Positions 1-36,714 of a stretch of DNA of 64,000 nt are shown here, in pieces. Position 1 is the first letter of the stretch. The number at the start of each line of letters is the position of its first letter. The stretch is from the NCBI GenBank assembly GCA_963816145.1, contig CAWFJP010000014.1:320001-384000 (forward strand). Direction: 5' to 3'. A program made the translations under genes and the position numbers. Under the pieces are notes generated by a model. The model had not been told where the DNA came from and searched no databases. It saw nothing but the letters and a program-made list of their open reading frames with translations. This stretch comes from an uncultured delta proteobacterium. GTDB taxonomy: Bacteria; Desulfobacterota; Binatia; UBA9968.

Positions 1-1335
1 CGCCATGGAATTACCGCGAAACTTTATGACGCCGCGACCCGCGTCGGCGGCCGCTGCTGGTCCCTACGGGAATTCTTCCCCGGCCAGGTGGCCGAACGCG
101 GCGGCGAGTTTATCGACACGCCGCATAAGACGTTACTTGGGTATGTGAAGGATTTCGGCTTGGCCATCGAAGATGTCGACAAGCAGCCGGGGGAAGTTTT
201 CTATTACTTCGGCGGTCAACGCTACGCCGAGAGTGCAATCGTCGATGAATACCGCGCCTTTGTTCCCGCCATGCGCTCCGATCTGCGAAAACTGTCCAAT
301 GAGCCCACGGCTGCGGATCATACCTCCGCAGACATTCTACTCGACACCTTGAGTCTTGCCGAGTATCTCGACCGGCGCGGCGCCGGCAGGCTGCTTACGT
401 CAGTGATCGAACAGGCTTACAAGGCCGAGTATGGTCTGGAAATCGACGAACAGAGCTGTCTCAACTTCTTGTTGTTTATTCACGCCGACCGGCGATCGAA
501 GTTTACGCCGTTCGGTATATTCAGCGACGAACGTTACCATGTTGTTGACGGCAACGATCGCATCGCCGAAGGCTTGAGCAGTCGCTTGCCGGGCCAGATC
601 GAAACCGGTATGCGCCTTGTGCGCGTGCTCAAAACCGGCGCTGGCAAGATCGAGCTGACCTTCGCACTGGGCGCGGCGACTCGGCAAGCGAGTTTCGACG
701 CCGCGGTGCTGGCGCTGCCGTTCACGACGCTGCGAGAGGTCGAACTCGATGCCGGCCTGGGATTGCCGACTTGGAAGATAGAAGCGATTCAGTCTTTGGG
801 CTACGGCACCAATGCCAAAATGATGCTAGGCTTCAACGGTCGTCCTTGGCTCGCCCTCGGCGGCAACGGCGAATCCTACAGTGACTTGGCGAATCATCAA
901 CTGACATGGGAGTCCAATCCAACTCGTGCCTCAATTGATCGTGGTGTGCTGACCGATTATTCGAGCGGCGCTCGCGGCGCGGCATTGAATCCGGCGAACC
1001 TCCAGGGCGAAGCCGCAACGTTTCTCAACGATCTGAACGTTGTGTTTCCCGGCGCACTGACGGCGGCGACGCGCGACGGCAGCGGCAAGCTTCGCGTCCA
1101 CCTCGAGCACTGGCCCTCCAATCCGTTAACCAAGGGGTCGTATACCTGCTACCGGCCCGGCCAGTTTACGGCCATCGCCGGCAATGAAGGCCGGCCGGTA
1201 GGCAATCTCCATTTCGCCGGCGAGCACGCCAACTCTTTCTACGAGTGGCAGGGATTCATGGAAGGCGCCGCGCTTTCCGGAATTCAGGCCGCCCGGGAGA
1301 TTCTCCAGGACGCAAAGGTCGGTGTGTTGCCCTAA
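1..1335 (+). CDS. Flavin monoamine oxidase family protein, 5'-truncated by window edge
   Basis: Frame 1 is open from base 1 (RHGITAKLYDAATRVGGRCWS...GGEFID); C-terminal LHFAGEH...GFMEGAALSG FAD motif. Confidence 0.85.
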   Translation, partial: RHGITAKLYDAATRVGGRCWSLREFFPGQVAERGGEFIDTPHKTLLGYVKDFGLAIEDVDKQPGEVFYYFGGQRYAESAIVDEYRAFVPAMRSDLRKLSNEPTAADHTSADILLDTLSLAEYLDRRGAGRLLTSVIEQAYKAEYGLEIDEQSCLNFLLFIHADRRSKFTPFGIFSDERYHVVDGNDRIAEGLSSRLPGQIETGMRLVRVLKTGAGKIELTFALGAATRQASFDAAVLALPFTTLREVELDAGLGLPTWKIEAIQSLGYGTNAKMMLGFNGRPWLALGGNGESYSDLANHQLTWESNPTRASIDRGVLTDYSSGARGAALNPANLQGEAATFLNDLNVVFPGALTAATRDGSGKLRVHLEHWPSNPLTKGSYTCYRPGQFTAIAGNEGRPVGNLHFAGEHANSFYEWQGFMEGAALSGIQAAREILQDAKVGVLP

Positions 1336-1498
1336 TTTTTGAGGCAGGGGGCTTTGCGGGCGGAGTTATATTGGCGAGGGGAAATGACCTGTCTCCTGAA
1401 AGCTTTCGGCGTGATTTGACAGTGCTGCACCTCTCGTCGTATCGTTGAACCCAATTCGTTAATTCACCTTATTGTCGTTACCAAAAGGGGAGGATTCC

Positions 1499-3196
1499 AT
1501 GGCTTATGATCTGGTTATTCGCGGTGGGCGCGTGGTCGATGGGTCGGGTTTACCGTCTTATGTTGCCGATGTCGGGGTCAAGGACGGCAAGGTTGCCGAA
1601 ATCGGCAAGGTCAAAGAGGGTGCAGCGAAAACGATCGATGCCGGCGGTCTCGCGGTTTCGCCGGGGTTTATCGATCATCATACTCATCTCGACGCGCAGA
1701 TGCTTTGGGATCCCTACGGCACTTGCGAGCCACAGCATGGCGTGACCTCGGTGGTGATGGGCAACTGCGGGTTGTCCCTGGCGCCGGTCCGGCAGGGCAT
1801 CGAAGATGCCATCGTCAAAAGTTTCGTGCGTGTCGAAGCGATCCCGCGCATTGCCCTTGATCAGGGCGTCAAATGGAACTGGCATAGCTACGGCGAGTAT
1901 CTCGACAACTTCGAAGGCAAGGTCGGCATCAACGTCGGCGGCCTGGTCGGTCATATCGCCGTGCGCCATCATGCCATGGGCGAAGAAGCGGTGGAGCGCA
2001 AGGCCACCGGCGCAGAAGTGCAAAAGATGAAGGGCTTGGTGCTCGATGCCATGGAAGGCGGCGCCTTGGGTATGTCGACCAACCGCAACGACCGCCATAT
2101 GCGCGAGGACGGCAAGCCGGTGTCGAGCCGCTTGGCGGACGACGACGAATTTTTCGCGCTCTGCGATGTCTTGGGCGAGCGCAATGCCGGCGTGATCGAA
2201 ACCATTCTAGGGCGCAATAAAGTCGAACATTTCGAATGGTATCATGAGCTGGCGAAGCGTACCCAGCGGCCGATCCTGTGGCAAAGCCTGCAGCATCGCT
2301 GGTCCGAGCCCAATCTCTGGCGCGAGCAGTTGGCGGCGGTGGAGCCGATTTTCAAGGCCGGCTACCAGGCTTACGGCTTGTCGCATACGGTGCCGTTGGT
2401 GCGCCATTTCACCATGAAAGACTGTCAAATATTCGACGAATTTCCGACTTGGAAGAACTTGATGTTTCTGCCGGTGGAAGTGCGCAAGCAGGCCTTTGCC
2501 GACGCGGATACCCGAACGAAACTACAAGGCGAGCTCGACAACCTGCGAGAGACCAACTATCACAAACGTTGGGATATTCCGAAAGTCGAAAAGGTTGTTA
2601 AACCGGAGAATCAAAAATACGTCGGCAAGACCATCGCCGAGATGGCGGCCATGCGCAATCAAGCGCCCATCGACGCCTTCCTCGATCTCGCCCTCGACGA
2701 AAACTTGGAGACGATTTTCTGGAACGCCAACAACGGCGGCGATTGGAACGCCATGGGCGAAATTCTGCGCAGCCCCTATGTGCTGATCGGCACTTCGGAT
2801 GCCGGCGCCCATGTGCTGTTCGGCGCCGACTTCGGCTACGGCACGATTCTCTTGGGTCTATGGGTGCGCGAGCGCCAAGTGATGTCTCTGGAGCAGGCGA
2901 TTCATAAGCTGACCTTTCATCCGGCTTCAATCTTCGGCTTGCAGGGGCGCGGCTTGCTGCGGCCGGGCTATGCCGCAGATATCACGATCTTCGATCCCAA
3001 GACGGTTAACGCCGAGGAGCCGGTCTGGGCCAATGATTTTCCGGCCAACAGCAAACGCATGGTGCAGCAAGCGATCGGTATGCATTACACCATCGTCAAC
3101 GGCACCGTGATCAACGATCATGGGCGCATGACCGGCGATCTGCCCGGCCAGGTGATGCGCGGGCCGCTCTACCGCCAGCATAAGGCGGCCGCGTAA
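1499..3196 (+). CDS. N-acyl-D-amino-acid deacylase-like amidohydrolase
   Basis: YDLVIRGGRVVDGSG, PGFIDHHTHLD metal motif, SDAGAH, GYAADITIFD; GGAGG RBS before ATG 1499. Confidence 0.85.
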   Translation: MAYDLVIRGGRVVDGSGLPSYVADVGVKDGKVAEIGKVKEGAAKTIDAGGLAVSPGFIDHHTHLDAQMLWDPYGTCEPQHGVTSVVMGNCGLSLAPVRQGIEDAIVKSFVRVEAIPRIALDQGVKWNWHSYGEYLDNFEGKVGINVGGLVGHIAVRHHAMGEEAVERKATGAEVQKMKGLVLDAMEGGALGMSTNRNDRHMREDGKPVSSRLADDDEFFALCDVLGERNAGVIETILGRNKVEHFEWYHELAKRTQRPILWQSLQHRWSEPNLWREQLAAVEPIFKAGYQAYGLSHTVPLVRHFTMKDCQIFDEFPTWKNLMFLPVEVRKQAFADADTRTKLQGELDNLRETNYHKRWDIPKVEKVVKPENQKYVGKTIAEMAAMRNQAPIDAFLDLALDENLETIFWNANNGGDWNAMGEILRSPYVLIGTSDAGAHVLFGADFGYGTILLGLWVRERQVMSLEQAIHKLTFHPASIFGLQGRGLLRPGYAADITIFDPKTVNAEEPVWANDFPANSKRMVQQAIGMHYTIVNGTVINDHGRMTGDLPGQVMRGPLYRQHKAAA

Positions 3197-3197
3197 T

Positions 3198-3530
3198 ATG
3201 GGAGTGAGTTATATTCCAGTTGCCCGTGTCGGCGAACTCAGTCCCGGTGCCATGAAGGAAGTCGACCTCGGCGGACGCCAAGTGCTGGTGGCGTTCGTCG
3301 AGGGCAAGTACTATGCGTTCTCGCGCCAATGTCCCCACGAAGAGGCGGATTTGAAGGAGGCGGGACAGCTGGTCAATATCAATAATGGCACACAGATCCG
3401 CTGCAACAATCACAGCTACTGCTTCGATCTTAGAACCGGCGACTGCACCCTGCCCAAGGGCGGCGCGCCGTTGACCGTGCTGCCTGCCGAAGAGCGCGGC
3501 GAAGAGGTTTGTATTCGTCTCGAGTGGTAA
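3198..3530 (+). CDS. Rieske [2Fe-2S] ferredoxin
   Basis: CPH...CNNH ligand pattern; 110 aa; starts 1 nt after the amidohydrolase stop. Confidence 0.85.
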   Translation: MGVSYIPVARVGELSPGAMKEVDLGGRQVLVAFVEGKYYAFSRQCPHEEADLKEAGQLVNINNGTQIRCNNHSYCFDLRTGDCTLPKGGAPLTVLPAEERGEEVCIRLEW

Positions 3531-13579: not shown

Positions 13580-14701
13580 ATGCAGAATTTCGCTTATGTC
13601 ATCGTCGGCGCCGGATTCGCCGGAGCCGCAACCGCCTATCACCTGGCCCGCCGCGGTATCGGAGACGTGTTGGTCTTGGAACAAGAAAGTATCCCAGGAT
13701 TTCATGCTTCAGGCCGCAATGCCGCAATGCTGCGCCAGTGTGTCGCCGAACCCGACTTGACCAAGCTGGCGCTCGATGGCGCGGCATTTATTCGAAACCT
13801 GCCGAAGGATTGGCCGGAGCCGGTGTTATTCAAGAACAACGGCTCGCTATTGCTCGGCAGCGGCGCCGGCTGGGAGAAGCTCAAGCGCGACGGCGACATC
13901 GGCCGCAGCGTCGGCATCCCCGGCATCGCCGAGTGGTCGCCGCAAGAAGCGGTTCGCCATGTGCCGCTGCTCAAGGAAGCGGAGTTCGACGGTGCGTTAT
14001 GGTGCGCCAGCGATGGCGTTGTCGACATTCATGCGCTCTTGTCCGGTTATCTAAAGTTCGCCGCCAGCCGGGGGGCGCAGATTCGCTACAATGCGGTGCT
14101 GCGTGCGGTGCGTCGCAGACCGGGCGCGGATATCGAATTGGAAACCGCCGATGGGGTCGTGAGTTGCAAGGTCTTGGTCAATGCCGGCGGCGCTTGGGCA
14201 AATGTCGTTGCTGATTTGGCCGGCGCGCGCGCTCTGCCATTGCGCGCATGCCGGCGCCATCTGTTCGTTTCGCCGCCACTGGCCTGGGTCGATCGCCGCT
14301 GGCCGTTTGTCTGGGATGTCAGCCACGATATCTATTTTCGCCCAGAAGGCGAGGGGCTTTTGCTCTGCGCTTGCGACCAAACTGAACTCGCGCCTGGCGA
14401 TCCGCCGTTGGACGAAGGTGTCAAAGACATGCTCGCCGATAAGATCCAGCGCTACATGCCGGGGCTGTCGGAAGTTTCCATCAGCCGGGGCTGGGCGGGG
14501 TTGCGCACTCTGACGCCGGACGGGCGTTTCGTCATCGGTTGGGACGCGCGAGTGGCGGGTTTGTTTTGGGTCGCCGGACTTGGCGGTCATGGCATGACGA
14601 CCAGCGCGGCGGTGGGCGAGTTGGCGGCGGAACTGCTGATCGGCGGGCCGGGCCGGAAGTCGGAGCCGTTCGCGCCGGAACGGTTCGATGCATTGGGGTA
14701 A
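13580..14701 (+). CDS. FAD-dependent oxidoreductase (DAO/glycine oxidase family)
   Basis: IVGAGFAG, ASGRNAA, WAGLRTLTPDG, GLGGHGM. Confidence 0.88.
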   Translation: MQNFAYVIVGAGFAGAATAYHLARRGIGDVLVLEQESIPGFHASGRNAAMLRQCVAEPDLTKLALDGAAFIRNLPKDWPEPVLFKNNGSLLLGSGAGWEKLKRDGDIGRSVGIPGIAEWSPQEAVRHVPLLKEAEFDGALWCASDGVVDIHALLSGYLKFAASRGAQIRYNAVLRAVRRRPGADIELETADGVVSCKVLVNAGGAWANVVADLAGARALPLRACRRHLFVSPPLAWVDRRWPFVWDVSHDIYFRPEGEGLLLCACDQTELAPGDPPLDEGVKDMLADKIQRYMPGLSEVSISRGWAGLRTLTPDGRFVIGWDARVAGLFWVAGLGGHGMTTSAAVGELAAELLIGGPGRKSEPFAPERFDALG

Positions 14702-14713
14702 TGGAGTGTTGGA

Positions 14714-15664
14714 GTGATGGGGTACCGGGAAAGCAAAGTTCAGTGTTTGGCAGTGATGATTGTAATTCTGTGTATTGTCGGCACGAGTTGGGGGGCGCAA
14801 CCTACCAAGGTGCGCATGTCCTACTCGAGCCGGAGCAATTCCAACACGCCTTTCGTCATCGCCTTGCGCAAGGGATTCTTTGCCGAGGAGGGAATGGACG
14901 TGGAGATGATCCAAGTCAATCCGCGCCTCGGCGCAACCGCGCTGCTCAACGGCGATATCGATTTTACCGCCACCTTCGGCACCACCTTGCGCGGCATCGT
15001 CGGCGGTTTTCCGATCAAGTTCGTCGCGGTGTCGGTCAAGAAGTCCGAACACTTTTTGATCGTCAGGCCGGAGATCAAGGAGATTCGCGATCTCAACGGC
15101 AAGAAATTAGGCGTCGCGACGCTGTTCGGTTCGGATCAAAAAGCCGCCGAAGAGATGATCCGCAGCAAAGGCTTTTCGCCGAATATGATCAAGCCAATCG
15201 CGCTCGGCGAATCGCCGGTGCGGGCGCAGGCGCTGCGCTCGGGTCTGGTCGATGCCATCTCGGTCTCCTCGCCGTTCGATCTGACCCTGCAAACCGAGGG
15301 CTTCCGCGCCTTGGCCGGGCCAAAAGATATCGACATGGCGCTGCCGACCTCCGGCATCGCCGTTGCCACCCGCTTGCTGCAGCAGAATCCGCAACATATC
15401 AAACGAGTGGTGCGTGCGTTGATGAAAGCGCACCGATTTGTTTTCGAAAATCGCAAAGAAACGGTGCCGCAAATGATCCGTTACCTGGAACAGAGTCCTG
15501 AGGTAGCCGAACGGTCCTACGATCTCGTCGTTAATTCGCTCAGCCGCAACGGTGAAATCACCGATCAAGAGTGGGAAGCGCTGACCGAGAAAAAGAAGAC
15601 GGCGGACGAAGTGCGTGACTTCACGCTGCTGCGCGAAGTGCAGAAGGAATTGAAGATTCGCTGA
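14714..15664 (+). CDS. ABC substrate-binding protein (NMT1/TauA/SsuA-like)
   Basis: Signal peptide; KGFFAEEGMDVEMI, DLNGKKLGV; start uncertain. Confidence 0.82.
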   Translation: MMGYRESKVQCLAVMIVILCIVGTSWGAQPTKVRMSYSSRSNSNTPFVIALRKGFFAEEGMDVEMIQVNPRLGATALLNGDIDFTATFGTTLRGIVGGFPIKFVAVSVKKSEHFLIVRPEIKEIRDLNGKKLGVATLFGSDQKAAEEMIRSKGFSPNMIKPIALGESPVRAQALRSGLVDAISVSSPFDLTLQTEGFRALAGPKDIDMALPTSGIAVATRLLQQNPQHIKRVVRALMKAHRFVFENRKETVPQMIRYLEQSPEVAERSYDLVVNSLSRNGEITDQEWEALTEKKKTADEVRDFTLLREVQKELKIR

Positions 15665-15741
15665 AGCATGTCGAATGCATGCTCTCTCGACTTGACGTCG
15701 ATCACGAGTATGCGGGACTCCACCGTTCCCGCCCCGCCTCA

Positions 15742-15770
15742 CCTGGATACCGGCTTTCGCCGGTATGACG
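15742..15770. repeat. Half copy of CGTC-type palindromic repeat
   Basis: cctggataccggctttcgccggtatgacg; matches the right arm of the 57916-57992 element. Confidence 0.65.
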
Positions 15771-15842
15771 GATGGTCGGTCCGCCTAATGCGAAATTGGA
15801 GAGTCTCAGTATAATGGGCGCAAACTTACTGCGAGGTGCCGC

Positions 15843-16622
15843 ATGAAAATCCAAGTTGAACGAGGCAAGAAATATTCGGCGCAGGATGCCAAGGCGATCG
15901 TCGATGGCCTGTATGCCAAGGTCCGCGAGCGTTGGGAGGCGCGGGTCAATCAGCGGCCGTTCATGCAGCAATTGATGGCCGGCAAGCTGCCGCTCAAAAC
16001 CTTGCAGCTGTTTTTTCGCAACTGGGGCGCCTACACCATCGAGATCAACACGCTGACCGCCTGCACTTACCATCGCAACATTACTTTTCTCAAAGTGAAC
16101 CGCGATCTGATGGGGCCCATCGGCGAGAAGATCGCCGACGAATTCATTCATCCCAAGCCGCCGGGCCATTTTCTCGTCATGATGGAAACGGCGAAAGCAT
16201 TGGGTCTCAGCGAAGAGGAAGTCTTTACCTCATCAATGCTGTCGGAGTTCCGCGGCAAGATCGATTTCATGCGCACCATCGTCTACGAGGGATCGGCGGC
16301 GGAGTGGTACGCAGCGGTGACCACTGAAGAACAGATCGGCCACTGGTCAGCGGCCTGTTACAAAGCTTTGACTACCCACTACGGCTTCGATCGCGCCAAG
16401 GCGACCTATTTCGCCACCCATGTCGAAGCGGACTTGGAAGAGCATGAAGACGGTGTCATGGGCCACGCCAGTTTCAACCGCATGGCGCTGCAGCGGTTGC
16501 TCGAAACCGGCATGGCCGAAGAGCGGCCGACCTACGGCTTGGATTATTGCGCCATGACTTCCGTGGACTTGCACGGCGCCATGCTGCGGGCGGCCATGGA
16601 AGAGGCGGAGCGGGGGATCTGA
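15843..16622 (+). CDS. Heme-oxygenase-like diiron protein (CADD/PqqC/TenA fold), copy 1
   Basis: PFMQQLMAGKLP N-terminus; E-x8-H (DEFIHPKPPGH), TTEE, HVEAD..H; ALGLSEEEV. Confidence 0.75.
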   Translation: MKIQVERGKKYSAQDAKAIVDGLYAKVRERWEARVNQRPFMQQLMAGKLPLKTLQLFFRNWGAYTIEINTLTACTYHRNITFLKVNRDLMGPIGEKIADEFIHPKPPGHFLVMMETAKALGLSEEEVFTSSMLSEFRGKIDFMRTIVYEGSAAEWYAAVTTEEQIGHWSAACYKALTTHYGFDRAKATYFATHVEADLEEHEDGVMGHASFNRMALQRLLETGMAEERPTYGLDYCAMTSVDLHGAMLRAAMEEAERGI

Positions 16623-16642
16623 AAATTTAACCACAAAGGTCG

Positions 16643-16720
16643 CCCCCACCTTCATCCTCCCCCGTGTGCGGGGGAGGAAGAGGAGGGGGGATTGGCCGCA
16701 AAGAGCGCAAAAGGCGCAAA
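16643..16720 (+). repeat. About 80-bp REP-like element, copy 1
   Basis: ccccaccttcatcctcccccg-tgtg-cgggggaggaagaggagggggg-attggccgcaaaga; near-identical to 21422-21502. Confidence 0.8.
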
Positions 16721-16738
16721 AAAGATTCGGAGGATTTT

Positions 16739-17662
16739 ATGAAAGAAGTTAGGGGCGTAGTTCTGCCGAGCCCGACGGTGTTTCGCGCGGATGGCAGCGT
16801 CGATGAGCCGCTCATGCGCGAGCTGACCGACTGGTTTGTCGCCTGCGGGGTGCATGCTTTTTTTATTCTGGGATCCTACGGCCAGGGGGCGGCACTGAAT
16901 CCGGAGGAGCGCAAGAAGGTCGCCGAGATTATTGTCCAGCAAGTGAAGCATCGGGTGCCGGTGGTGGTGCATATCGGCGCTGTGGATCCCTACACCGCCA
17001 TCGATTTAGGCAAGCATGCCAAGGCGATCGGCGCCGAAGCGATCGGCCATGTCGGGCCTTACTATTACGCCGACCGCTCGGAATACGAGATCATCGAGCA
17101 TTTGAAAATGGTCGACCGCGCGGTCGGCATGCCCATGCTCATCTATAACAACCCGCGCTATTCCGGTTATAACATCCATCCGCAATTCATGGCGCGTTTG
17201 GTGGAAGCGGTGCCGAATATCTTCGGCGCCAAGCTGGCGATGGGCAGCGTCGATGAAGCGATGGCCTATCTGAAGCTGGTCAAGGCGCGGTTCGCGCCCT
17301 ACGCGCTGGCGAGCAATTTGGTTTCGGCCATGTCGGTGGGTGTCGCCGGCACCATCAGCCCGCCGCTGGCGGTGACCCCGGAGATCGGCGTCGAGCTGGT
17401 CCGCGCCATCGATGCCGGCGACGCGGCGCGCGCCTTGGCGCTGCAAAAAGATGTGATTCGCATTCACGATATTTTTCTGCGTCTCGCCGGTCCCTTCGGC
17501 CGGACCATCTATTGCGAAGCGATGCGGCTGCGCGGCTTCGATGTGAAAATGTATCCGCGCTGGCCGTCCAAACCGCTGAGCCGGGACGCTTACGATGAGC
17601 TGCGCGACCTTTTCACCGAACTAAAAATCATCGGCGCGCAAGCCCAAGCAAGGAGCGCATAG
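16739..17662 (+). CDS. Dihydrodipicolinate synthase/class I aldolase family protein
   Basis: DGSVDE, LGSYGQG, IYNNPRYSG, Schiff-base Lys in GAKLA; GGAGG RBS. Confidence 0.85.
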   Translation: MKEVRGVVLPSPTVFRADGSVDEPLMRELTDWFVACGVHAFFILGSYGQGAALNPEERKKVAEIIVQQVKHRVPVVVHIGAVDPYTAIDLGKHAKAIGAEAIGHVGPYYYADRSEYEIIEHLKMVDRAVGMPMLIYNNPRYSGYNIHPQFMARLVEAVPNIFGAKLAMGSVDEAMAYLKLVKARFAPYALASNLVSAMSVGVAGTISPPLAVTPEIGVELVRAIDAGDAARALALQKDVIRIHDIFLRLAGPFGRTIYCEAMRLRGFDVKMYPRWPSKPLSRDAYDELRDLFTELKIIGAQAQARSA

Positions 17663-17667
17663 AACGG

Positions 17668-18612
17668 ATGACTATGAAGCGTTTTTTTCCAATTGTCGCA
17701 ATTTTCGGTTTGGTTTCGCTTATGGTTTCCGCCGCGCGCGGCGAGGAGCAGGTGCGGGTCGCGTTGTCGGTGCGCAACGTGGTGTTTCTGCCTTTTTACT
17801 ACGCTAAGACGTTGAAGATTTACGACCGCTACGGCCTTAACGTCGAGTTGATTCAGATGCGCAGCGACTTGCAGTTGGCGGGTTTGGTTTCCGGCGAGAT
17901 CGACTTTACGCCCTCCGTCGGGCCGGCGGGGACGGCCATCGCTAATTCGCTGCCGCTCAAGGCGTTGGCGATTCTTTACCGGGCGCCGTTGTTCTCCTTG
18001 GTCAGCCCGGCGGGCACCGCCAACGTGAAAGAGTTGGAAGGCAAGAAAGTCGCGGTGTCGCGCATCGGTTCGGAGAGCCACCGCTACGGCTCGCTGATGA
18101 TCGAAAGCGCCGGCGCGGACCCGAAGAAGGTGACGTTCATTCAAACCGGCAGCACGTCGATCAGTCTGGCGGCGATTCAGCAGGGGACGGTGAACGCGGC
18201 GGTGTTGAGTCCGCCGTTTACCGGCATGATGGCGGAAAAGGGCTACAAGATTCTTGCGCGCAGCCGGTCGTTGGCGGAGGCACCATGGCTCGGTCTGGTC
18301 GCCAACCGCCAAAAGATCGAGAAGAATCCGGAGCAGGTGCGCAACATGCTGCGCTCCATGCGCGATGTCGTGGCGGTGATGCGCCGGGATCGTGCCGGAG
18401 TGATCAGCTATATCGAGAAGGATTTCAAAGTGAGCACGGCCAATGCCACCGAATCCTACGAGGACATCATGGGCGTGACCATGGATAATTTGACTTTGCG
18501 CGATGAGCAGATTCAAAAGTATCTTGATAATTCGCTGGCGCGCGGCGAGATCGGCAAGCGGCTGACGGTCAACGAGATGTTCGATTTCTCGTTCTTGCGT
18601 AATTTGAAATAG
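17668..18612 (+). CDS. ABC substrate-binding protein (NMT1/TauA-like)
   Basis: Signal peptide; YGLNVELIQM, ELEGKKVAVSRIGS. Confidence 0.82.
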   Translation: MTMKRFFPIVAIFGLVSLMVSAARGEEQVRVALSVRNVVFLPFYYAKTLKIYDRYGLNVELIQMRSDLQLAGLVSGEIDFTPSVGPAGTAIANSLPLKALAILYRAPLFSLVSPAGTANVKELEGKKVAVSRIGSESHRYGSLMIESAGADPKKVTFIQTGSTSISLAAIQQGTVNAAVLSPPFTGMMAEKGYKILARSRSLAEAPWLGLVANRQKIEKNPEQVRNMLRSMRDVVAVMRRDRAGVISYIEKDFKVSTANATESYEDIMGVTMDNLTLRDEQIQKYLDNSLARGEIGKRLTVNEMFDFSFLRNLK

Positions 18613-18645
18613 CTGGGGCGATGAACGCGGCCAAAGGATATTTCC

Positions 18646-19590
18646 ATGTCTGACAAACCAACTCTTTCGCTCGCCGCGGGGTATCATCTGCGCGCCAAGG
18701 CTCTGTGCGATGGCCGCGTGCAGCTCAAGAATTTCGACCTGCGCGCGATCGCTTATGAAAACGACGGCTTGGGCCATGACGAGTTCATGGCCGGCAAATT
18801 CGATGCCGGCGAGTTTTCCCTGGCGATGTATCTTGCGCTCAAAAGCCGCGGCGCGCCGTATATGGCGATCCCGGTGTTTCCCAATCGCAAGTTTCGCCAG
18901 TCTTATATTTTCGTGCCCGATCGCTCGCCGCTGACCGATGCCAAAGAGCTCAAAGGCAAAAAGGTCGGCATTCCCAGCTGGCTCAACACCGCGGGCTTAT
19001 GGGCGCGGGGCATTTTGAGCGACGAGTACGGCGTCAAGCCGGCGGATATTCACTGGGTCATGCCGCGCAACAACAAAGTCGATGTCACGTTGCCGGCGGG
19101 GACCCGGCTCGATGTTGTCGCCAGTGACGCATCCTTGACGGCGCGCATGCTCAAAGGCGAATTCGATGCGATCATTGTGCCGGACTTTCCCGAAGAGCCG
19201 GGTTGGCGCCGACTGTTCGGCGATTCGAAGGCGGTGGAGCAGGACTTCTTCCGGCGCACCGGCATTTTTCCGACCAGCCACGCGATTACCTTTCACGCGG
19301 CCTATCTGGAGAAGCATCCGCTGGCGGCTCAAGAAATGTTCGATGCCTGTGTCGCGGCCAAGAATCTAGCGCTGCGCGATGACGCCGACGCGACCTATTC
19401 CAATTTTGTCTGGAACCGCCAGGTGTGGGAGGAGCAGCGTGCGGTAATGGGTGGCGATCCTTGGAAATTCGGCATCAAGCATAACGAGAAAGTTTTGAAC
19501 ACGATTGTGCGCTACGCCGGGGAGCAAGGGTTTTTGGCGAAGAGTGTTTCGCTCGAAAATTTGTTTATTCGCATCGATGAAAGGGATTGA
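18646..19590 (+). CDS. 4,5-dihydroxyphthalate decarboxylase-like protein (periplasmic-binding fold)
   Basis: LCDGRV, FDAGEFSL, AIPVFPNRKFRQS, TAGLWARGIL, TGIFPTSH, GDPWKFGI; no signal peptide. Confidence 0.75.
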   Translation: MSDKPTLSLAAGYHLRAKALCDGRVQLKNFDLRAIAYENDGLGHDEFMAGKFDAGEFSLAMYLALKSRGAPYMAIPVFPNRKFRQSYIFVPDRSPLTDAKELKGKKVGIPSWLNTAGLWARGILSDEYGVKPADIHWVMPRNNKVDVTLPAGTRLDVVASDASLTARMLKGEFDAIIVPDFPEEPGWRRLFGDSKAVEQDFFRRTGIFPTSHAITFHAAYLEKHPLAAQEMFDACVAAKNLALRDDADATYSNFVWNRQVWEEQRAVMGGDPWKFGIKHNEKVLNTIVRYAGEQGFLAKSVSLENLFIRIDERD

Positions 19591-19634
19591 AAAATCTAAA
19601 GCGGCGCCCCCTTATCCTAGCCTTCTCCCGCGAG

Positions 19635-19764
19635 AGGCTGTGTCGTAATGAGCAAATGCCCCACATTTGTCATCCCGAGCGCAGCGAGGGATCTCGTGTT
19701 TTCAGCCACATACGAAGAAGAGATTTCTCGGCTTCACCTCGAAATGACAGTTGTGACACAGTCT
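19635..19764. mobile_element. 130-bp MITE with imperfect 14-bp TIRs and 5-bp target duplication
   Basis: Ends aggctgtgtcgtaa / ttgtgacacagtct (11 of 14 complementary); GCGAG at 19630-19634 and 19765-19769; excision restores the hairpin ccttctccc-gcgag-gggagaagg. Confidence 0.75.
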
Positions 19765-19845
19765 GCGAGGGGAGAAGGGACGGAATTGAGGGAAGTCGCG
19801 GCCTAACAATAAAGGTTCTGACCCTTAAGCTACAACTATCGACAC

Positions 19846-21306
19846 ATGGCAATTACGACACATGAGCATGGCGGTCACGGCCACGATCACGAAGGCGCAG
19901 TCGGGCCGCATACCCACTTGACCAGCGTCGGCATCGACATCGGCTCTTCGACATCGCATTTGATGTTCTCCCGGCTGTTGATCGGCTATCCGTCGGTCTT
20001 GCAGCGCAAGCCCTTGGTGCTCGAACGCAACGTGATCGCCCGCTCGCCGATCTTGCTTACACCGTTTTCCGGCGATTGGAACATCGAGGCGGGGCCGCTC
20101 AGAGAATTGATTGAGTCGACATTTGCCGAAGCCGGATTGAGCCGCGATGCCATCGACACCGGGGCGGTGATCATTACAGGCGAGGCGGCGCGGCGCGACA
20201 ATGCGGCGAAGATCGCCGAGTTGTTCGCCGATGAGACCGGTAAATTTGTTTGCGCCACAGCGGGGCCGAGGTTGGAGACCATCATGGCGGCTCATGGCTC
20301 GGGCGCCGTCCAGCAGAGCCGCGAACAGAAAATGACGCTGCTTAACATCGACATCGGCGGCGGCACGACCAAGATTAGCGTCATCGAAGAGGGGCGGATT
20401 CGCGCCACCACGGCAGTCAATATCGGCGCGCGCTTGGTGGCGCATAACGGCGCCGATGAAATCGTCCGCTTGGAAAAAGGCGGACAGCGCTTTCTCGCCG
20501 ATCTCGGCAATAATCTCGATTACGGCGCCAAAGTGCCGGCGGAACTCAGGGCGCGCCTGGCCCATCGCATGGCGCTCGCGCTGTTCGATGCATTGGCTAC
20601 CGGCGAGCCACCCTGGGAGGAATTTTACGTGACGCCGGGTTTGGGCGCGCTGCCCAAGATCGATGGCATACTCTTCTCCGGCGGCGTTTCCGAATATATT
20701 TATGCGCGCGAGAGCACATCTTTCGGCGACCTCGGGCCATTTCTCGGGCGTGAGATTCGCCGTGAAGCGGAAGCGCGCGGGTTCAATATTCTCGAAGCCG
20801 GCGAAGGCATCCGCGCAACGGTCATCGGCGCGTCACAATACACGGTTCAGTTGAGCGGCGAGACGATCTTCGTGCCGGACAGTCTCGAACTTCCGGTGCA
20901 CAATTTGCGGGTTTTTGTCGTGCAATGCGACTGGGCTGCGCCGATTGCCGATAAGGTTGAAAAAGCGGTTGTGCGAGTGCTTGGCGAGCGTGACCCGGAA
21001 GTGCGAGGCTCGCCATTCGCTCTGGCGTTTTCGACGCCGCCGTTTGTCGGCTATGGCGCAGCGCAAGATATGGCCAAAGGCATCGACACGGCGTTGGCGC
21101 GGTTGGCCGCGGCGGACCGGCCGGTCGCTTTGGTCTTCGGTCAAAATGTCGGGCAAGTGATCGGCGGCATGCTCTCGGCCAAATGGAACATGCCCTGTAT
21201 CGACGAAGTGACGCTATCCGAGTTGGATTTTATCGACGTCGGTGAAGTGGTGCCGGAAGAGGGGTTCGTTCCGGTGGTGATCAAGAGTCTGGCCTTTGGC
21301 GTGTGA
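19846..21306 (+). CDS. eutA: EutA-like ASKHA ATPase (ethanolamine ammonia-lyase reactivase family) with His-rich N-terminus
   Basis: SVGIDIGSSTSHLMFS, RSPILLTP, TGAVIITGEAAR, AAHGSGA, NIDIGGGTT, FSGGV, GIRATVIGASQYT, VPVVIKSL. Confidence 0.85.
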   Translation: MAITTHEHGGHGHDHEGAVGPHTHLTSVGIDIGSSTSHLMFSRLLIGYPSVLQRKPLVLERNVIARSPILLTPFSGDWNIEAGPLRELIESTFAEAGLSRDAIDTGAVIITGEAARRDNAAKIAELFADETGKFVCATAGPRLETIMAAHGSGAVQQSREQKMTLLNIDIGGGTTKISVIEEGRIRATTAVNIGARLVAHNGADEIVRLEKGGQRFLADLGNNLDYGAKVPAELRARLAHRMALALFDALATGEPPWEEFYVTPGLGALPKIDGILFSGGVSEYIYARESTSFGDLGPFLGREIRREAEARGFNILEAGEGIRATVIGASQYTVQLSGETIFVPDSLELPVHNLRVFVVQCDWAAPIADKVEKAVVRVLGERDPEVRGSPFALAFSTPPFVGYGAAQDMAKGIDTALARLAAADRPVALVFGQNVGQVIGGMLSAKWNMPCIDEVTLSELDFIDVGEVVPEEGFVPVVIKSLAFGV

Positions 21307-21421
21307 GTCCGTTGGTTGGACAGCGCAAACTTGCATGTGATAGAAACTAAAGGCCAACGCCGCGGCGAGAAAAAGTTGTAGGATGAGAGTCTTCGCTTGA
21401 CATGATTCGTGACAATGGAGA

Positions 21422-21502
21422 CCCCCACCTTCATCCTCCCCCGCAAACGGGGGAGGAAAGAGGAGGGGGGGATTGGCCGCAAAGAACGCCAAAGGCTCAA
21501 AA
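21422..21502 (+). repeat. About 80-bp REP-like element, copy 2
   Basis: Near-identical to 16643-16720, same orientation. Confidence 0.8.
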
Positions 21503-21521
21503 TCGATTAGGGAGTTACATC

Positions 21522-22238
21522 ATGGGCGGGGCACCCAGCGGGTTAGAAAAGATGTGGCAGGAACTTGTCAGACTGTGCAACGAGCAGTTCGACTCCGACC
21601 CGTTCAAACGTTTGTTGAATGCCAAATTCACCAAGCTGCGGGCGCAGCATTACTCGATTCAGATGGCCTACTACGTGCAAAACCGGCGCGACTGTTGGGG
21701 CTACGTGCAGGGCTCGGCGCCGCTCCCGGTCAAACAGATTATCTGGCACCATGAAGAGGACGAACTGATCGGCCAGAAGGCCCAGGGCAAGATGGATCAT
21801 ATTACGCTGGCGGTCAAAGAAGGCGAAGTATTCGGTCTGACCGCCGAGGCGTTCGAGAAGACCGCGCGCATGGAGGGCGGCGAGGTCTGTTTCAGCGCGT
21901 GGATTCACCTGTCGCAGAAATCCTGGCTGGAAGCGATCGCCGCATCGGCGATTCTGGAAATGCGCAATTCGGCAGAATTGATTCCCGGTGGGTCGTTGTC
22001 CCAACGCATCGGTATGATCTTCGAACGGGATTTGAGCATACCGATGAAAAAGCAGATCAACAACTCCGAGCATGTGGTGATGGATGTCGAGCATGCCCAT
22101 CTGTTGATGCAGGTGGCCAAACAGTATGCCACCAGCGCGTCGGCGCAAGCAGCGATCTTGAGCGGCGCCCGGGAAAGCTTGATGATCGATCGGATTTATC
22201 GCGGCCACTTGGCTGATTTGATGGAAAGTTTAGACTGA
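21522..22238 (+). CDS. Heme-oxygenase-like diiron protein, copy 2
   Basis: WHHEEDELIG...MDH, ILEMR, EHVVMDVEH (H-x3-D-x2-H); GGGAG RBS. Confidence 0.75.
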   Translation: MGGAPSGLEKMWQELVRLCNEQFDSDPFKRLLNAKFTKLRAQHYSIQMAYYVQNRRDCWGYVQGSAPLPVKQIIWHHEEDELIGQKAQGKMDHITLAVKEGEVFGLTAEAFEKTARMEGGEVCFSAWIHLSQKSWLEAIAASAILEMRNSAELIPGGSLSQRIGMIFERDLSIPMKKQINNSEHVVMDVEHAHLLMQVAKQYATSASAQAAILSGARESLMIDRIYRGHLADLMESLD

Positions 22239-22270
22239 TAGGTCACTAGCAGCATTGGCATGGAGGAACG

Positions 22271-22975
22271 ATGAATTTGGTGCAGGATCTTTGTCGAGAA
22301 CTCGACCAAATGGTCAACGACCAATTCGACAGCGTCGAGTTCAAAGCATTTCTCGGCGTGCCGCTGACCATGGAGCGGGGCCGGTTCTACGTCGTGCAGA
22401 ACGCGCTTTATACCGCCAATCGGCGCGACTGCTGGGGCTATGTTCAAGGCGGCGCACCCTTGGAAGTCAAACGGGTGATTTGGGAGCATGAGAGCGATGA
22501 GTTGATCAACGATCCGCGCGCCGGCATGGACCATTTCAACTTGACCGTGAAGCAAGGCGAGGTCATCGGCCTCAAGCGGGAGGATTTCGACAGCGCGCAA
22601 GTGCCGGCGATGGTGCAAGCGTGCTTTCATGCCTGGCATCATATCGCCATGCGCGGCCACTGGCTGACATCCTATGCAGCTTCGCATATGCTCGAGCGGC
22701 GCAACAACGGCAAGATCGTCAAGGGTGGCGGCATGTCGTTCCGGGTCGGCAAGAAGTTCGAGAACGAACTGGGGATTAACTTGAAGCGGATGATCTCACT
22801 GGATGTCCACGTCGTCGCCGACACCGAACACTCGGAGAATATTTCCGAGATGTTCGAGAAATACGTCAAGACACCGGAGGATTGCGAACGGGTGCTGGAT
22901 GGCGCGCGCGAGTCCATGGCCATCGACCGGGCTTATCGCGGTGCGCTCGGCTTTTATATGGAGCGCATCAACTAA
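22271..22975 (+). CDS. Heme-oxygenase-like diiron protein, copy 3 (paralog of copy 2)
   Basis: NRRDCWGYVQG shared with copy 2; WEHESDELI...MDH, MLERR, VHVVADTEH. Confidence 0.75.
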   Translation: MNLVQDLCRELDQMVNDQFDSVEFKAFLGVPLTMERGRFYVVQNALYTANRRDCWGYVQGGAPLEVKRVIWEHESDELINDPRAGMDHFNLTVKQGEVIGLKREDFDSAQVPAMVQACFHAWHHIAMRGHWLTSYAASHMLERRNNGKIVKGGGMSFRVGKKFENELGINLKRMISLDVHVVADTEHSENISEMFEKYVKTPEDCERVLDGARESMAIDRAYRGALGFYMERIN

Positions 22976-23007
22976 TGTCTACTGGTAAAAATTAGGGAGA
23001 ATCGATA

Positions 23008-24102
23008 ATGAAGAACCTAAATTTGAACGAAGCTTCGGCTTACTCGGCGAAGAGTCCATACGAAATTTATCAGGAGTGGGAAGGGATTCCGGTGGAAAAG
23101 GGTTTCATCGTGCCGGATTTGTTAAAGCTCGAGTTGGGCGATTGGCAGCGCAGCGGCGGCAAGGCCGCTTTCGTCAATCAAGACGGCGCCGGCGGCATGT
23201 GCGATGCTATGGTCGAAGAAATCCCAGCCGGCGGCCAACTCAAACCACAGCGGCATATGTACGAAAAAGCGGTTTTTATCCTCCAAGGCCAGGGGGCAAC
23301 GACGATCTGGAACGAGGGCGGCAAGAAGCACACTTTGGAGTGGCAGCGCGGCAGCCTGTTTTCGACGCCGCTCAACACCTGGCACCAACATTTCAACGCC
23401 CAGGGCAGCGAGCCGGTGCGGATGGTTTCTCTAACCGATGCGCCGGTGATCATCAATCGCTACCGCAATCTCGATTACATTTTTAACAACAATTTTACTT
23501 TTATGGATCGTTACGAAGGCGGCGCCGATGCTTGGAACGGCGCTGGCGGACGTTACTTGGGGTCGGAGATCAAGCGCGGCCGGGTTTGGGAGTCCAATTT
23601 CATCGCCGACCTATGGGCGTTCGAGCCGAAGGATTACAAAGAACGCGGCGGCGACAACCGCACGACTCTATTCGAGTTCGTCGACAACACCATGAGCGCG
23701 CATCTGTCGGAGTTTCCCGTCGGCAAGTACAAGAAGGCCCATCGTCATGGCGCCGGCGCCCATATCGTCATGTTGACCGGCTCAGGGTACTCCTACCTCT
23801 GGCCGGAAGGCGAGTACGGCACGAAGCGGCGCGTCGAGTGGGGTCGGATGAGCATGTTCACGCCGCCGATGCAGTGGTGGCACCAGCATTTCAATCCCGG
23901 CGCCGAGCCGGCGCGTTATCTCGCGCTCAAACCCTGGGGGTTCAAGTACAAAGTCGAAGACCTGAAGGATACCGGCGAGGACGTTAAAAACGGCGGCGCG
24001 CAGATCGAATATCAAGACCAGAATCCCGAGGTCCATCAAATTTTCCTCGGCGAATGCAAAACCCGCGGCGCCCAACCGCGTATGCCGATGTTCGACAAGT
24101 AG
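23008..24102 (+). CDS. Bicupin, gentisate-1,2-dioxygenase-like
   Basis: Two cupin motifs: QRHMYE..GQG.T...WHQHFN and KAHRHGAG...WWHQHFN. Confidence 0.75.
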   Translation: MKNLNLNEASAYSAKSPYEIYQEWEGIPVEKGFIVPDLLKLELGDWQRSGGKAAFVNQDGAGGMCDAMVEEIPAGGQLKPQRHMYEKAVFILQGQGATTIWNEGGKKHTLEWQRGSLFSTPLNTWHQHFNAQGSEPVRMVSLTDAPVIINRYRNLDYIFNNNFTFMDRYEGGADAWNGAGGRYLGSEIKRGRVWESNFIADLWAFEPKDYKERGGDNRTTLFEFVDNTMSAHLSEFPVGKYKKAHRHGAGAHIVMLTGSGYSYLWPEGEYGTKRRVEWGRMSMFTPPMQWWHQHFNPGAEPARYLALKPWGFKYKVEDLKDTGEDVKNGGAQIEYQDQNPEVHQIFLGECKTRGAQPRMPMFDK

Positions 24103-35655: not shown

Positions 35656-36714
35656 TCACCGCTCGACTATCTGCAACCCGTGGCCGTCGGGGTCGCGTGC
35701 CAGAAAGCCCTTTGCGAAGCTGAGAGTATTCTCCGGCAAATTCGCCAGGCTCGGCGAAACTACTCGCCGCTTCGCTTGTCGCAGTTTTTGTGCGGCGTTT
35801 GCCGCGTTGTCAGTCGTCAGAGTCGTTTGCCAGTGCCACAAATCGTTTGCTCTGGTGTCGCTCGGCGCAGGCCGGCCGTCGCGCGGCGCCAGGTATTCCA
35901 ACAACTCGATGCCAGGCCCAGCGGCGGCCCTGAGGCCGCTGATATGCAAACGCGCGCCAGCGACATTGTTCAAATGCTCTTGTTCAGTGCCGTAGTTAAA
36001 GCTGTCGCCGGCGAGTTTCATACCAAGTAGGTCGCGATAATATTTCAAACTGCTCGGTGTGTTCGACACGACGATGGCGCTGTGGTCGATGCCGAGAAAG
36101 AGCTTGTCGTTATTCCTTTGCCAGCGCGGATCGCCCTTGCCTGGCGGAAAGTAGATGATCTCCAAATTGTGCCCGTCGGGATCTTTGAAATAAAAAGCTC
36201 GAATACCGGCGGCGGCCTTGTTGGTGACCGGAATCGTTTGCGGCGCGGTGGAGACGTGGCGCACTTTGTGGTTGCGCAGCTGCTGATAGGCCCGGTCCAT
36301 ATCGCTGACCACGATGGCGATATGCTGAAACCCATGATCGTGGCTGCGCCATTCCAGCGGGATCGGCCGGCCCTCCGGGGCGAGATACTGCGTCAGTTCG
36401 ATCATTTCTTCGCCAAGCTTAAGGCGCACCACGCGCATGCGCAGCCCGAACAATCCCTGCAATTTCTCATACTCGCTGCCGTGAACTTCAACGTCCGTGA
36501 TCTTTTCAAAGCGTAATACTTTCGAGAAATACTCAACCGATCGATCCACATCGGCGACGGTCATGCCGATCGTTTCTAGGGAGCGGATCAGCTGCGCGGA
36601 CCCCGCTGAAGTAACAAGTAAAAAGGAAAAAATGAAAATCGCCGTCGTCAACGCGATATGAATATTATAGCGAATCTGTTCCGACCTTTTCAATTTTCCA
36701 TTCTCCATTATCAA
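35656..36714 (-). CDS. Exported two-domain VOC/glyoxalase family protein
   Basis: GMTVADVDRS, FQHIAIVVSDM, FKDPDGHNLE, GIDHSAI, RDPDGH. Confidence 0.85.
   Translation of the reverse strand: MIMENGKLKRSEQIRYNIHIALTTAIFIFSFLLVTSAGSAQLIRSLETIGMTVADVDRSVEYFSKVLRFEKITDVEVHGSEYEKLQGLFGLRMRVVRLKLGEEMIELTQYLAPEGRPIPLEWRSHDHGFQHIAIVVSDMDRAYQQLRNHKVRHVSTAPQTIPVTNKAAAGIRAFYFKDPDGHNLEIIYFPPGKGDPRWQRNNDKLFLGIDHSAIVVSNTPSSLKYYRDLLGMKLAGDSFNYGTEQEHLNNVAGARLHISGLRAAAGPGIELLEYLAPRDGRPAPSDTRANDLWHWQTTLTTDNAANAAQKLRQAKRRVVSPSLANLPENTLSFAKGFLARDPDGHGLQIVER

Follow-up and report, generated by a model that had tools for sequence, protein, structure and literature searches.

What does a homologue of EutA do in a genome in which no ethanolamine ammonia-lyase can be found? 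The question is raised by a stretch of 64,000 nucleotides from an uncultured delta proteobacterium (assembly GCA_963816145.1, contig CAWFJP010000014.1, positions 320,001 to 384,000), here called the window, in which the gene for an EutA-like ATPase stands among genes for three heme-oxygenase-like diiron-type proteins (HDOs) and a bicupin. EutA is named for the reactivation of ethanolamine ammonia-lyase, which in EutA proper proceeds by ATP-dependent release of the damaged cofactor, and DdrAB/GdrAB are the reactivases of diol and glycerol dehydratase. An earlier note on this DNA described the ATPase as an orphan and remarked that the window holds no eutBC. The latter extends to the whole source genome (7.82 Mb in 31 contigs, completeness 99.47%), in which neither EutB nor EutC was found; the former is not borne out, since the family has a conserved partner, a bicupin, which adjoins it in 48 of 66 paralogue-like metagenome loci, in other metagenome-assembled genomes (MAGs) and in cultured rhizobia. 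Judged by its gene context and phylogeny, the ATPase is not an orphaned B12 reactivase and belongs to a bicupin-tied branch of the EutA family, and the most interesting result of the analysis is this widespread module of bicupin and EutA-like protein, here combined with two diiron HDOs.

The source organism is an uncultured Binatia-type bacterium of soil and wetland, whose nearest kin among public genomes are MAGs bearing the title Candidatus Binatia or 'delta proteobacterium', and the gene island described here is real, conserved and modular. It consists of ten genes on the same strand (13580-24102, +), nine of which the earlier note had listed in an order, with coordinates and with family assignments that agree with our open reading frame and domain-model results. 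The note did however overlook the tenth, DauA-like gene, which lies upstream in the same orientation and ends 12 nt before the start of the gene for the first solute-binding protein (SBP1). The genes are as follows.

13580..14701, + strand: DAO, a DAO-family, DauA-like FAD amine/D-amino-acid dehydrogenase (PF01266, 239 bits)
14714..15664, + strand: SBP1, an NMT1/SsuA-type solute-binding protein (PF09084, 89 bits)
15843..16622, + strand: HDO1, with a CADD/PqqC-like heme-oxygenase fold (PF03070, TENA/PQQC, 35.4 bits; PF14518, 29.9 bits)
16664..17662, + strand: DHDPS/N-acetylneuraminate-lyase family enzyme (PF00701, 172 bits)
17668..18612, + strand: SBP2, a second NMT1-type binding protein (PF09084, 67 bits)
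18646..19590, + strand: PhtD-like cytoplasmic protein with a binding-protein fold (match to PDB entry 9jp7, E 1.5e-43)
19846..21306, + strand: EutA-family ASKHA ATPase (PF06277, 373.5 bits)
21522..22238 (longest open reading frame from 21402), + strand: HDO2 (PF14518, 31.7 bits)
22271..22975, + strand: HDO3 (PF14518, 45 bits)
23008..24102, + strand: bicupin (PF07883, 49.6 bits)

The EutA-like ATPase and its bicupin neighbour

The ATPase matches PF06277 from end to end (profile positions 2-474 of 475) and has the ATPase loops D31-G33-T36 and D169-G171-G172-G173-T174, which are conserved across an alignment of 25 rows. In spite of this full-length likeness it departs from EutA in several respects, since it is only 30-33% identical to canonical EutA (30-32% to the enterobacterial, clostridial and listerial proteins), falls below every NCBIfam EutA equivalog cut-off (the best being NF007992, with 297 against 598 bits), and has a bicupin and not a B12 enzyme as its neighbour, EutB being missing from 6 of 6 genomes checked. 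Furthermore, the bicupin-linked forms carry His- or acid-rich tails, whereas the canonical EutA found beside EutB (L045) has neither, and the same is true of two relatives found beside an aldehyde ferredoxin oxidoreductase (L043 and L044). A sequence search of the PDB with the EutA-like protein returned no solved relative at E values up to 0.01.

The source genome has four EutA-family genes, and two of the three other copies lie directly downstream of a bicupin, by an ATP synthase operon and by complex-I-like genes, while the third stands alone (G000:C2:174858-176279) with DUF4175 and TPR proteins as neighbours. EutA-like genes (E up to 1e-20) were found in 7 of 301 sampled genomes of the phylum, and a bicupin adjoins six of the nine paralogues outside the window (genomes G000, G291 and G124). 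A metagenome scan with the alignment of the EutA-like family gave 80 loci, 66 of them paralogue-like and 14 orthologue-like; EutB is present in none of the 80, and the 48 bicupin-adjacent paralogue-like loci have the bicupin on the same strand within 400 nt of the EutA-like gene, the proportion being 38 of 47 among loci with at least 600 nt of flank on both sides. No third conserved gene accompanies the pair in the metagenome loci. MAGs titled Gemmatimonas, Candidatus Lustribacter and Alphaproteobacteria, which contain HDO-plus-cupin loci, have two EutA-like genes each, and in these six loci a bicupin adjoins the EutA-like gene in three full and two partial cases. EutB was likewise found in none of five further genomes carrying EutA-like genes (the three MAGs and two kin), four of which have bicupin-EutA-like pairs, and no cupin neighbour was detected with the queries used at the Eremiobacterota loci L025 and L026.

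At least 7702 public proteins match a bicupin-adjacent EutA-like paralogue at E values up to 1e-30. Close relatives of this paralogue are called 'ethanolamine ammonia-lyase reactivating factor EutA' wherever a source gives them a name, apart from one named 'recombinase'. Since there is no ethanolamine ammonia-lyase in the checked genomes that encode these proteins, the label is probably wrong for the whole branch of the family.

In a FastTree phylogeny of 94 EutA-like sequences, rooted on the EutB-adjacent member and uncertain in its deep branches, the island ATPases form one clade of 14 (support 99) within a clade of 18 rows, which is sister to a clade of 75 rows with 52 bicupin-adjacent members, and the canonical EutB-adjacent EutA (33% identical) is a distant outgroup. 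Distant members of the family (30-36% identical) comprise the one beside EutB and the two beside aldehyde ferredoxin oxidoreductase. The latter two (L043 of genome G201 and L044 of genome G140, 34-36% identical), which also have a 4Fe-4S ferredoxin as neighbour, represent a third context for the EutA family, neither B12 nor cupin.

His-rich tails are typical of metal-handling accessory proteins, and such a tail (residues about 5-24, rich in His, Gly and Asp) is kept at the N-terminus of 12 of 12 orthologues of the island ATPase. All 13 rows of the cluster clade have at least four His (median 8) within the 45 residues that precede the ATPase motif, and many bicupin-adjacent paralogues have acidic, His-containing tails instead. 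A predicted complex of the EutA-like protein and the bicupin scored 0.00 in a run made without controls, which speaks neither for nor against binding. In the literature, searched with subscription journals outside its reach, we found no description of a bicupin-EutA pairing and no paper treating HDOs together with EutA, and the matches listed for EutA homologues or PF06277 concern only ectoine catabolism or unrelated topics.

The bicupin

The predicted structure of the bicupin (pLDDT, predicted local distance difference test, 85.1) has two β-barrels. In the C-terminal barrel H245, H247, H292 and H294 are invariant across 25 rows, while the usual cupin Glu position is variable, with no conserved carboxylate there, and the ligand positions of the N-terminal barrel are not conserved either; the pattern of the C-terminal barrel fits a His-only metal site. 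The best structural matches of the model are salicylate 1,2-dioxygenase (2phd; Z 21.2, root mean square deviation 3.2 over 257 residues) and then gentisate 1,2-dioxygenase (3bu7; Z 20.7), but MncA (Z 20.2) and OxdC (Z 19.9), which are bicupins other than dioxygenases, trail by only about 1 Z. A Foldseek search with the model gave generic bicupins only (template modelling (TM) score about 0.48), and the ESM Atlas gave only unnamed 'cupin domain' clusters. The NCBIfam models for gentisate and 5-aminosalicylate dioxygenase match weakly, the gentisate dioxygenase model TIGR02272 scoring 30.8 bits against a cut-off of 442. The structural model thus suggests that the bicupin works like a 3-His dioxygenase, but we do not file it as a member of that family, since the lead in Z is about 1 and the gentisate model is missed widely. 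The island protein resembles gentisate and salicylate 1,2-dioxygenases in its bicupin fold, its best Z scores and its apparent His-only site, but differs in that its His cluster lies in the C-terminal barrel, whereas the active site of the reference enzymes lies in the N-terminal one.

A FastTree phylogeny of 98 bicupins, likewise uncertain in its deep branches, places 48 of 49 EutA-adjacent bicupins in the same 77-row family as the island bicupin, together with HDO-adjacent bicupins of Alphaproteobacteria and Gemmatimonas MAGs. The one EutA-adjacent bicupin outside this family, that of L017, groups apart in a small clade, and the 'classical' bicupins, with six HDO-adjacent cases, form a separate clade of 17 rows that has no EutA-adjacent member.

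The heme-oxygenase-like diiron-type proteins

All three HDOs contain the set of three His and three carboxylate ligands that the earlier note had read from their sequences, a reading now confirmed by family alignments and, for HDO2 and HDO3, by the register of the motifs with 9pj4. E77, H88, H180 and H187 do not vary across a 27-row alignment of the HDO2/HDO3 family, in which E142 and D184 reach at least 90% conservation and HDO2 has all the invariant ligand columns, and in the HDO1 family (15 rows) E100, H109, E162/E163, H193, D197 and H201 are each kept in at least 93%. Profile comparison places the motif columns of the HDO2/HDO3 family in register with the diiron/FeMn p-aminobenzoate synthase 9pj4, and the profile matches 4lqx (2.3e-16), 9pj4 (4.6e-15), CtCADD (2.5e-08), PqqC (~1e-07) and BesC (0.0044). 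For HDO1 and HDO2 the fold was assigned from Pfam and alignments and for HDO3 from a structure model, which is an all-helical, heme-oxygenase-like bundle of seven helices (pLDDT 95.6) bearing the ligand set. Its best solved folds are CtCADD (8va9, TM 0.77/0.83), PqqC, BesC, UndA and FlcD. HDO2 and HDO3 are paralogues with 44% identity, and the start of HDO2 is probably the ATG at 21522, because GGGAG is found 7 nt upstream and the orthologues align only from there. Orthologues of HDO3 form at least 120 clusters with 81-98% identity, and no functional name occurs among the matches listed. Against the CADD model TIGR04305 (cut-off 200 bits) HDO1 scores 34.3 bits, and HDO2 and HDO3 give no match.

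The fold and the aligned ligand columns are thus shared with CtCADD and NePabS, the self-sacrificing p-aminobenzoate synthases, but HDO3 is just 14-15% identical to these, and the source genome has 32 HDO paralogues in catabolic-looking contexts, to which the role of a single cofactor-making enzyme does not fit. A second comparison is offered by SznF, in which, according to the accessible part of a 2026 review (PMC13108848), an HDO domain and a cupin domain are fused and act in turn on one substrate in N-nitrosourea synthesis. The island similarly combines HDO and cupin metal enzymes, but as separate proteins, with two HDO paralogues, a two-barrel cupin and an ATPase, and in a context of uptake and decarboxylation, whereas SznF is biosynthetic. 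The same part of the review describes HDO cofactors as labile.

Salvage of the thiamine pyrimidine by a ThiY-type binding protein and a TenA enzyme was also considered for the island and dropped, as all three TenA-fold proteins have the metal ligand set and none of them attains a thiaminase model.

Conservation and modularity of the island

The expectation of the earlier note that the genes co-occur in other genomes holds in part, in that the island recurs in 19 genome loci and 14 metagenome loci, but as a modular set. In the 19 Binatia-like genome loci, where HDO2 is 70-90% identical, the neighbourhood is kept, as are the VWA, pilin, SDR and PBP2 genes that flank it, and the 14 metagenome loci are the orthologue-like ones mentioned above. 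HDO2 is followed by HDO3 in 21 of 21 related genome and metagenome loci reaching that far, and HDO3 by the bicupin in 19 of 20 with room for it. The sole exception, L017, has no downstream bicupin and instead has a classical bicupin upstream of the ATPase, and in L009 about 1.1 kb is inserted between HDO3 and the bicupin (L009:1621-2729).

The feeder genes are far less constant. Twelve genome loci span DAO to HDO2, and when a gene is counted if one tblastn segment covers at least half of the query, DAO is present in all 12, HDO1 and the EutA-like gene in 10 each, SBP2 and the PhtD-like gene in nine each, and SBP1 and the DHDPS-family gene in six each. All genes are kept in only five of the 12, the other seven being without one to five genes, and in L008, L010, L011 and L016 the coordinates are too tight to accommodate the absent ones; L011 is reduced to DAO-EutA-HDO2-HDO3-bicupin. 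The full set is also present in the metagenome loci L054 and L062, and SBP2 is duplicated in L016 and L054. Only DAO, HDO2, HDO3 and the bicupin are therefore near constant, and this mosaic content favours a fixed core with exchangeable feeder modules over a single obligatory nine-step pathway. In addition, the sub-modules DHDPS-HDO1, bicupin-EutA and HDO-bicupin recur apart from one another, the first being found again in the source genome at C3:285759-287552. A Gemmatimonas locus combines a dicarboxylate symporter, a DHDPS-family gene (45% identical), a bicupin, an HDO, three further bicupins and extradiol-type dioxygenases, and the alphaproteobacterial L020 has three HDOs around a small ChrR-type cupin.

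HDO loci and paralogue families of the source genome

Profiles built in this analysis identify 32 HDO genes in 27 loci of the source genome, and the genes found within 5 kb of these loci were compared with 2000 random placements. Bicupins occur near eight HDO loci against a null mean of 1.59, UbiD near nine against 1.79, and PhtD-like genes near four against 1.24, with 0, 0 and 58 of the 2000 draws, respectively, reaching as high. By Pfam, five paralogous HDO loci have LysR regulators, binding proteins, decarboxylases and bicupins nearby. The enrichment of bicupins and UbiD beside HDOs therefore suggests that the HDOs of this genome have a catabolic role, and the literature, searched within the same limits as above, gave no description of a catabolic HDO.

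The paralogue families are large. By tblastn the genome has 30 PhtD-like genes, some 350 binding proteins of the NMT1 type and 22 bicupins of the type found in the window, or 41 bicupins when two kinds are counted, and Pfam models find 151 Amidohydro_2, 45 UbiD and 29 PF14518 proteins. Over all the counts made, the ranges are 151-169 for Amidohydro_2, 45-46 for UbiD and 29-32 for the HDOs. These hundreds of binding proteins and more than 200 homologues of aromatic-acid decarboxylases suggest a soil lineage specialised in carboxylated aromatic carbon. Among the literature matches listed for Binatia together with aromatic compounds or decarboxylases there is nothing on these families.

Cultured rhizobial carriers

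A tblastn search against plasmids shows ATPases about 41% identical to that of the island in Sinorhizobium chiapasense, S. terangae, S. mexicanum and Phyllobacterium zundukense. In P. zundukense (L139, NZ_CP104971.1) a 'cupin domain-containing protein' is annotated directly before 'EutA', and the surroundings include a Rieske ring-hydroxylating oxygenase together with its ferredoxin and reductase, a pair of class II aldolases, a binding protein of the NMT1 type and IclR and LysR regulators, with genes for a NiCoT nickel/cobalt transporter and for NikR immediately 3' of the pair. The loci of S. terangae and S. mexicanum are unannotated, and their gene families come from scans made in this analysis. 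Their cupin and ATPase are 95% and 78% identical to the P. zundukense pair, and around them lie a flavin aromatic-ring hydroxylase, an Amidohydro_2 enzyme, aldolases and IclR regulators as well as, in the S. terangae cluster, a PhtD-like protein 38% identical to that of the island. NiCoT and NikR are found at one of the three rhizobial loci and neither at the two Sinorhizobium loci nor at the other loci examined, and the source genome has one NikR homologue and no NiCoT. The rhizobial bicupin is 63% identical to the Binatia copy on contig C30. The rhizobial pair thus sits in a similar toolkit, with conventional hydroxylases where the Binatia island has HDOs.

The remaining island genes

The best solved relative of the DauA-like gene product is the D-arginine dehydrogenase DauA (3nyc, E 5e-45), and tblastn finds the gene as a sole copy in the source genome. 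SBP1 scores 87.5 bits against TIGR01728, below the cut-off of 163.5, and both SBP1 and SBP2 have hydrophobic N-termini that, judged by eye, resemble signal peptides. The DHDPS-family protein covers profile positions 3-287 of 289 in PF00701, scores below all NCBIfam equivalog cut-offs and has as best solved relative the 2-keto-3-deoxy-galactonate aldolase YagE (E 3.5e-38); its sequence makes it a likely class I aldolase or hydratase-aldolase, and its start may be the ATG at 16739.

The PhtD-like protein has no signal peptide and aligns over residues 4-307 with residues 23-339 of the 4,5-dihydroxyphthalate decarboxylase 9jp7, for which no paper was found in the literature open to our search (subscription journals outside it), and is a homologue of non-oxidative aromatic-acid decarboxylases. 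It is like PhtD of the phthalate pathway in its full-length homology, cytoplasmic location and binding-protein fold, but its gene is one of 30 paralogues in the genome, and the island has no phthalate dioxygenase or dehydrogenase genes. A route for hydroxyproline or a cyclic imino acid was considered as a candidate in view of the DAO and DHDPS pair and of an OCD-DHDPS-HDO1 locus in the source genome, but the DHDPS-family gene is missing from six of the 12 relatives that keep DAO.

Possible function of the island

From gene context and analogy, the island most likely serves to take up a carboxylated aromatic or heteroaromatic acid and to break it down with the use of O2, and we infer both substrate and chemistry. 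The secreted SBP1 and SBP2 would capture the substrate, and the PhtD-like enzyme would take off a ring carboxyl group without oxygen. HDO2 and HDO3, acting as a heterodimer or in successive steps, could then carry out an O2-dependent ring hydroxylation or oxidative decarboxylation, for which the Rieske and flavin hydroxylase genes of the equivalent rhizobial clusters offer a parallel. The fixed core consists of HDO2 and HDO3 followed by the bicupin, which with its putative His-only site, as in 3-His ring-cleaving dioxygenases, might open the ring, after which the DHDPS-family lyase may split the open-chain product, with HDO1 and the DauA-like flavoprotein acting in side steps. The earlier proposal of an uncharacterised O2-dependent route for an aromatic or heterocyclic compound accordingly survives in so far as the contexts of the paralogous loci fit it, but not as one fixed pathway.

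Within such a modular aromatic-acid catabolic island the ATPase could serve to mature or reactivate labile metal oxygenases, a proposal made by analogy to which we give slightly less than even credence. It would drive loading or exchange of the labile metal of the bicupin at the expense of ATP, by analogy with EutA, and the His-rich tail of the island clade suggests that it may also serve the labile HDO cofactors. We prefer a role in loading or exchanging metal because of this tail and of the single neighbourhood with NiCoT and NikR, and since that one rhizobial locus places the pair beside these genes, the metal handled could be nickel or cobalt and not iron. The theme proposed to be common to EutA and the island protein is the rescue of a single cofactor enzyme by a factor of its own that is driven by ATP. 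XylT-type ferredoxins reactivate catechol 2,3-dioxygenase by electron transfer reducing the iron, and they resemble the proposed factor in being dedicated accessory proteins of a catabolic operon that rescue an oxygen-damaged Fe(II) ring-cleaving dioxygenase, but where XylT reduces iron, the ATP-driven ASKHA protein of the island would load or exchange metal.

Several observations weigh against this interpretation, besides the mosaic gene content and the closeness of the bicupin model to non-dioxygenases. The EutA-like gene is absent from two of the 12 clusters (L008 and L016), which retain HDO2-HDO3-bicupin, so that the core does not depend in cis on the ATPase. Among the metagenome loci 18 of 66 EutA-like genes have no adjacent bicupin, including nine of the 47 with enough flank, and one whole subclade, comprising the lone C2 paralogue of the source genome and L041, L042, L048, L066, L104, L114, L121 and L132, is without an adjacent bicupin; its members begin with a long acidic extension, at the end of which stands a conserved 'HPMW' motif. 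Among the 49 bicupin-adjacent paralogues the median is 3 His, and only 15 have a tail with at least four. The Pfam scan of the island shows no reductase, regulator or membrane transporter genes, and Amidohydro_2 genes are not enriched near the HDOs (seven loci against a null mean of 5.48, a count reached in 601 of 2000 draws). No feature of the sequence names the substrate, and the about a dozen HDOs validated so far are all biosynthetic in the accessible part of the review cited above (PMC13108848).

An alternative in which the EutA-like protein is a catalytic partner, phosphorylating or ATP-activating a small-molecule substrate that the bicupin then converts, would account for the tight same-strand pairing, often among housekeeping genes and with no third conserved gene, for the invariant ATP-binding loops and for the high conservation of EutA-adjacent bicupins across phyla (63%), which fits one fixed reaction, and ASKHA kinases are indeed a known kind. 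However, its nearest characterised relative EutA is a reactivase and no kinase, the His- and acid-rich tails suggest metal handling and L008 and L016 retain the core but have no ATPase, and we consider a catalytic role unlikely. That all nine genes form one obligatory linear pathway for a single compound is suggested by their co-orientation and short gaps, by the full set in the window, in five of 12 relatives and in L054 and L062, and by the contigs from RNA libraries that cover many of the genes, but it is very unlikely given that seven of the 12 relatives do without some of them, with no room left in the coordinates, and that the sub-modules recur separately.

A biosynthetic island, in which, as in SznF, HDO and cupin together yield a metabolite that is N-oxygenated or has an N-N bond, while the binding proteins are unrelated neighbours, would be in line with the biosynthetic function of all validated HDOs and the joined HDO and cupin domains of SznF in the accessible part of the review (PMC13108848), and with the three HDOs around a small cupin in L020. 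It is nevertheless highly improbable, since the Pfam scan found no genes for non-ribosomal peptide synthetases, polyketide synthases, methyltransferases or exporters in the island, since two of its proteins are secreted binding proteins, since related loci have ABC importers, IclR/LysR regulators, decarboxylases and extradiol dioxygenases, and since the 27 HDO loci are enriched for bicupins and UbiD. Inherited synteny without any functional link, kept by the close kinship of the compared genomes, might be argued from the fact that all 19 close loci come from one lineage and that synteny is as strong in the flanking VWA, pilin, SDR and PBP2 genes as within the island itself. We give this scarcely any credence, as HDO-bicupin and DHDPS-HDO-bicupin adjacency is found in Alphaproteobacteria and Gemmatimonas MAGs, bicupin-EutA adjacency in MAGs from other phyla as well as in cultured rhizobia, and the enrichment of HDO loci for bicupins within the one genome.

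If the branch does serve a bicupin metal enzyme, it would represent a new kind of accessory factor for oxygen-using metalloenzymes and offer a concrete route to making such enzymes in active form, and the reactivase principle would be widened from B12 enzymes to cupin enzymes and, in the island clade, to diiron HDOs. The wider claim that the bicupin-linked EutA-like proteins are a new metal-loading or reactivating class and that Binatia HDOs were recruited as catabolic ring-activating oxygenases strikes us as doubtful, although the island, along with its 26 sister loci, points to a catabolic function of HDOs, where the validated ones are, in the accessible part of the review (PMC13108848), all biosynthetic. 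Since the rhizobia with the plasmid-borne pair can be cultured, the central hypothesis of a metal-handling ATPase is directly testable.

Intergenic repeats and RNA-library contigs

The three larger intergenic gaps of the island hold dispersed REP-like repeats, whose genome copies were counted with up to 4 mismatches.

15740..15772, no strand assigned: REP-like repeat in the SBP1-HDO1 gap (54 genome copies)
19660..19695, no strand assigned: REP-like repeat in the PhtD-EutA gap (54 genome copies)
21424..21466, no strand assigned: REP-like repeat in the EutA-HDO2 gap (11 genome copies)

RNA contigs diverge from the window at the first of these, and a peak of word depth at 19652-19765 in soil and sediment RNA libraries, with contigs unlike the window on both sides, is due to the dispersed repeat. 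Between 13300 and 24800 a promoter and terminator scan gave counts no higher than in shuffled sequence, and an Rfam scan gave no match at E values up to 0.1.

In 14 wetland or soil DNA runs 82-87% of the sampled words of the stretch are present, and four metatranscriptome libraries contain matching contigs with 0-6 differences over 80-619 nt. These lie in DAO, SBP1, DHDPS, SBP2, the PhtD-like gene, the ATPase, HDO2 and HDO3, and bridge DAO-SBP1 (14422-14792) and HDO2-HDO3 (22184-22334); from stretches without such cover, e.g. 15988-16755 and 24052 onward, we draw no reading. As RNA libraries can hold DNA and contigs cannot show the transcript, the contigs lend weak support to expression of the island in situ and are no proof of one operon.

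Elsewhere in the window two further groups of oxidative genes are found. One, at 88-3530, encodes an amine oxidase, an Amidohydro_3 enzyme and a Rieske ferredoxin, and the other, at 35656-38938 on the minus strand, a glyoxalase-fold dioxygenase, a GMC oxidoreductase and a DM13 protein.

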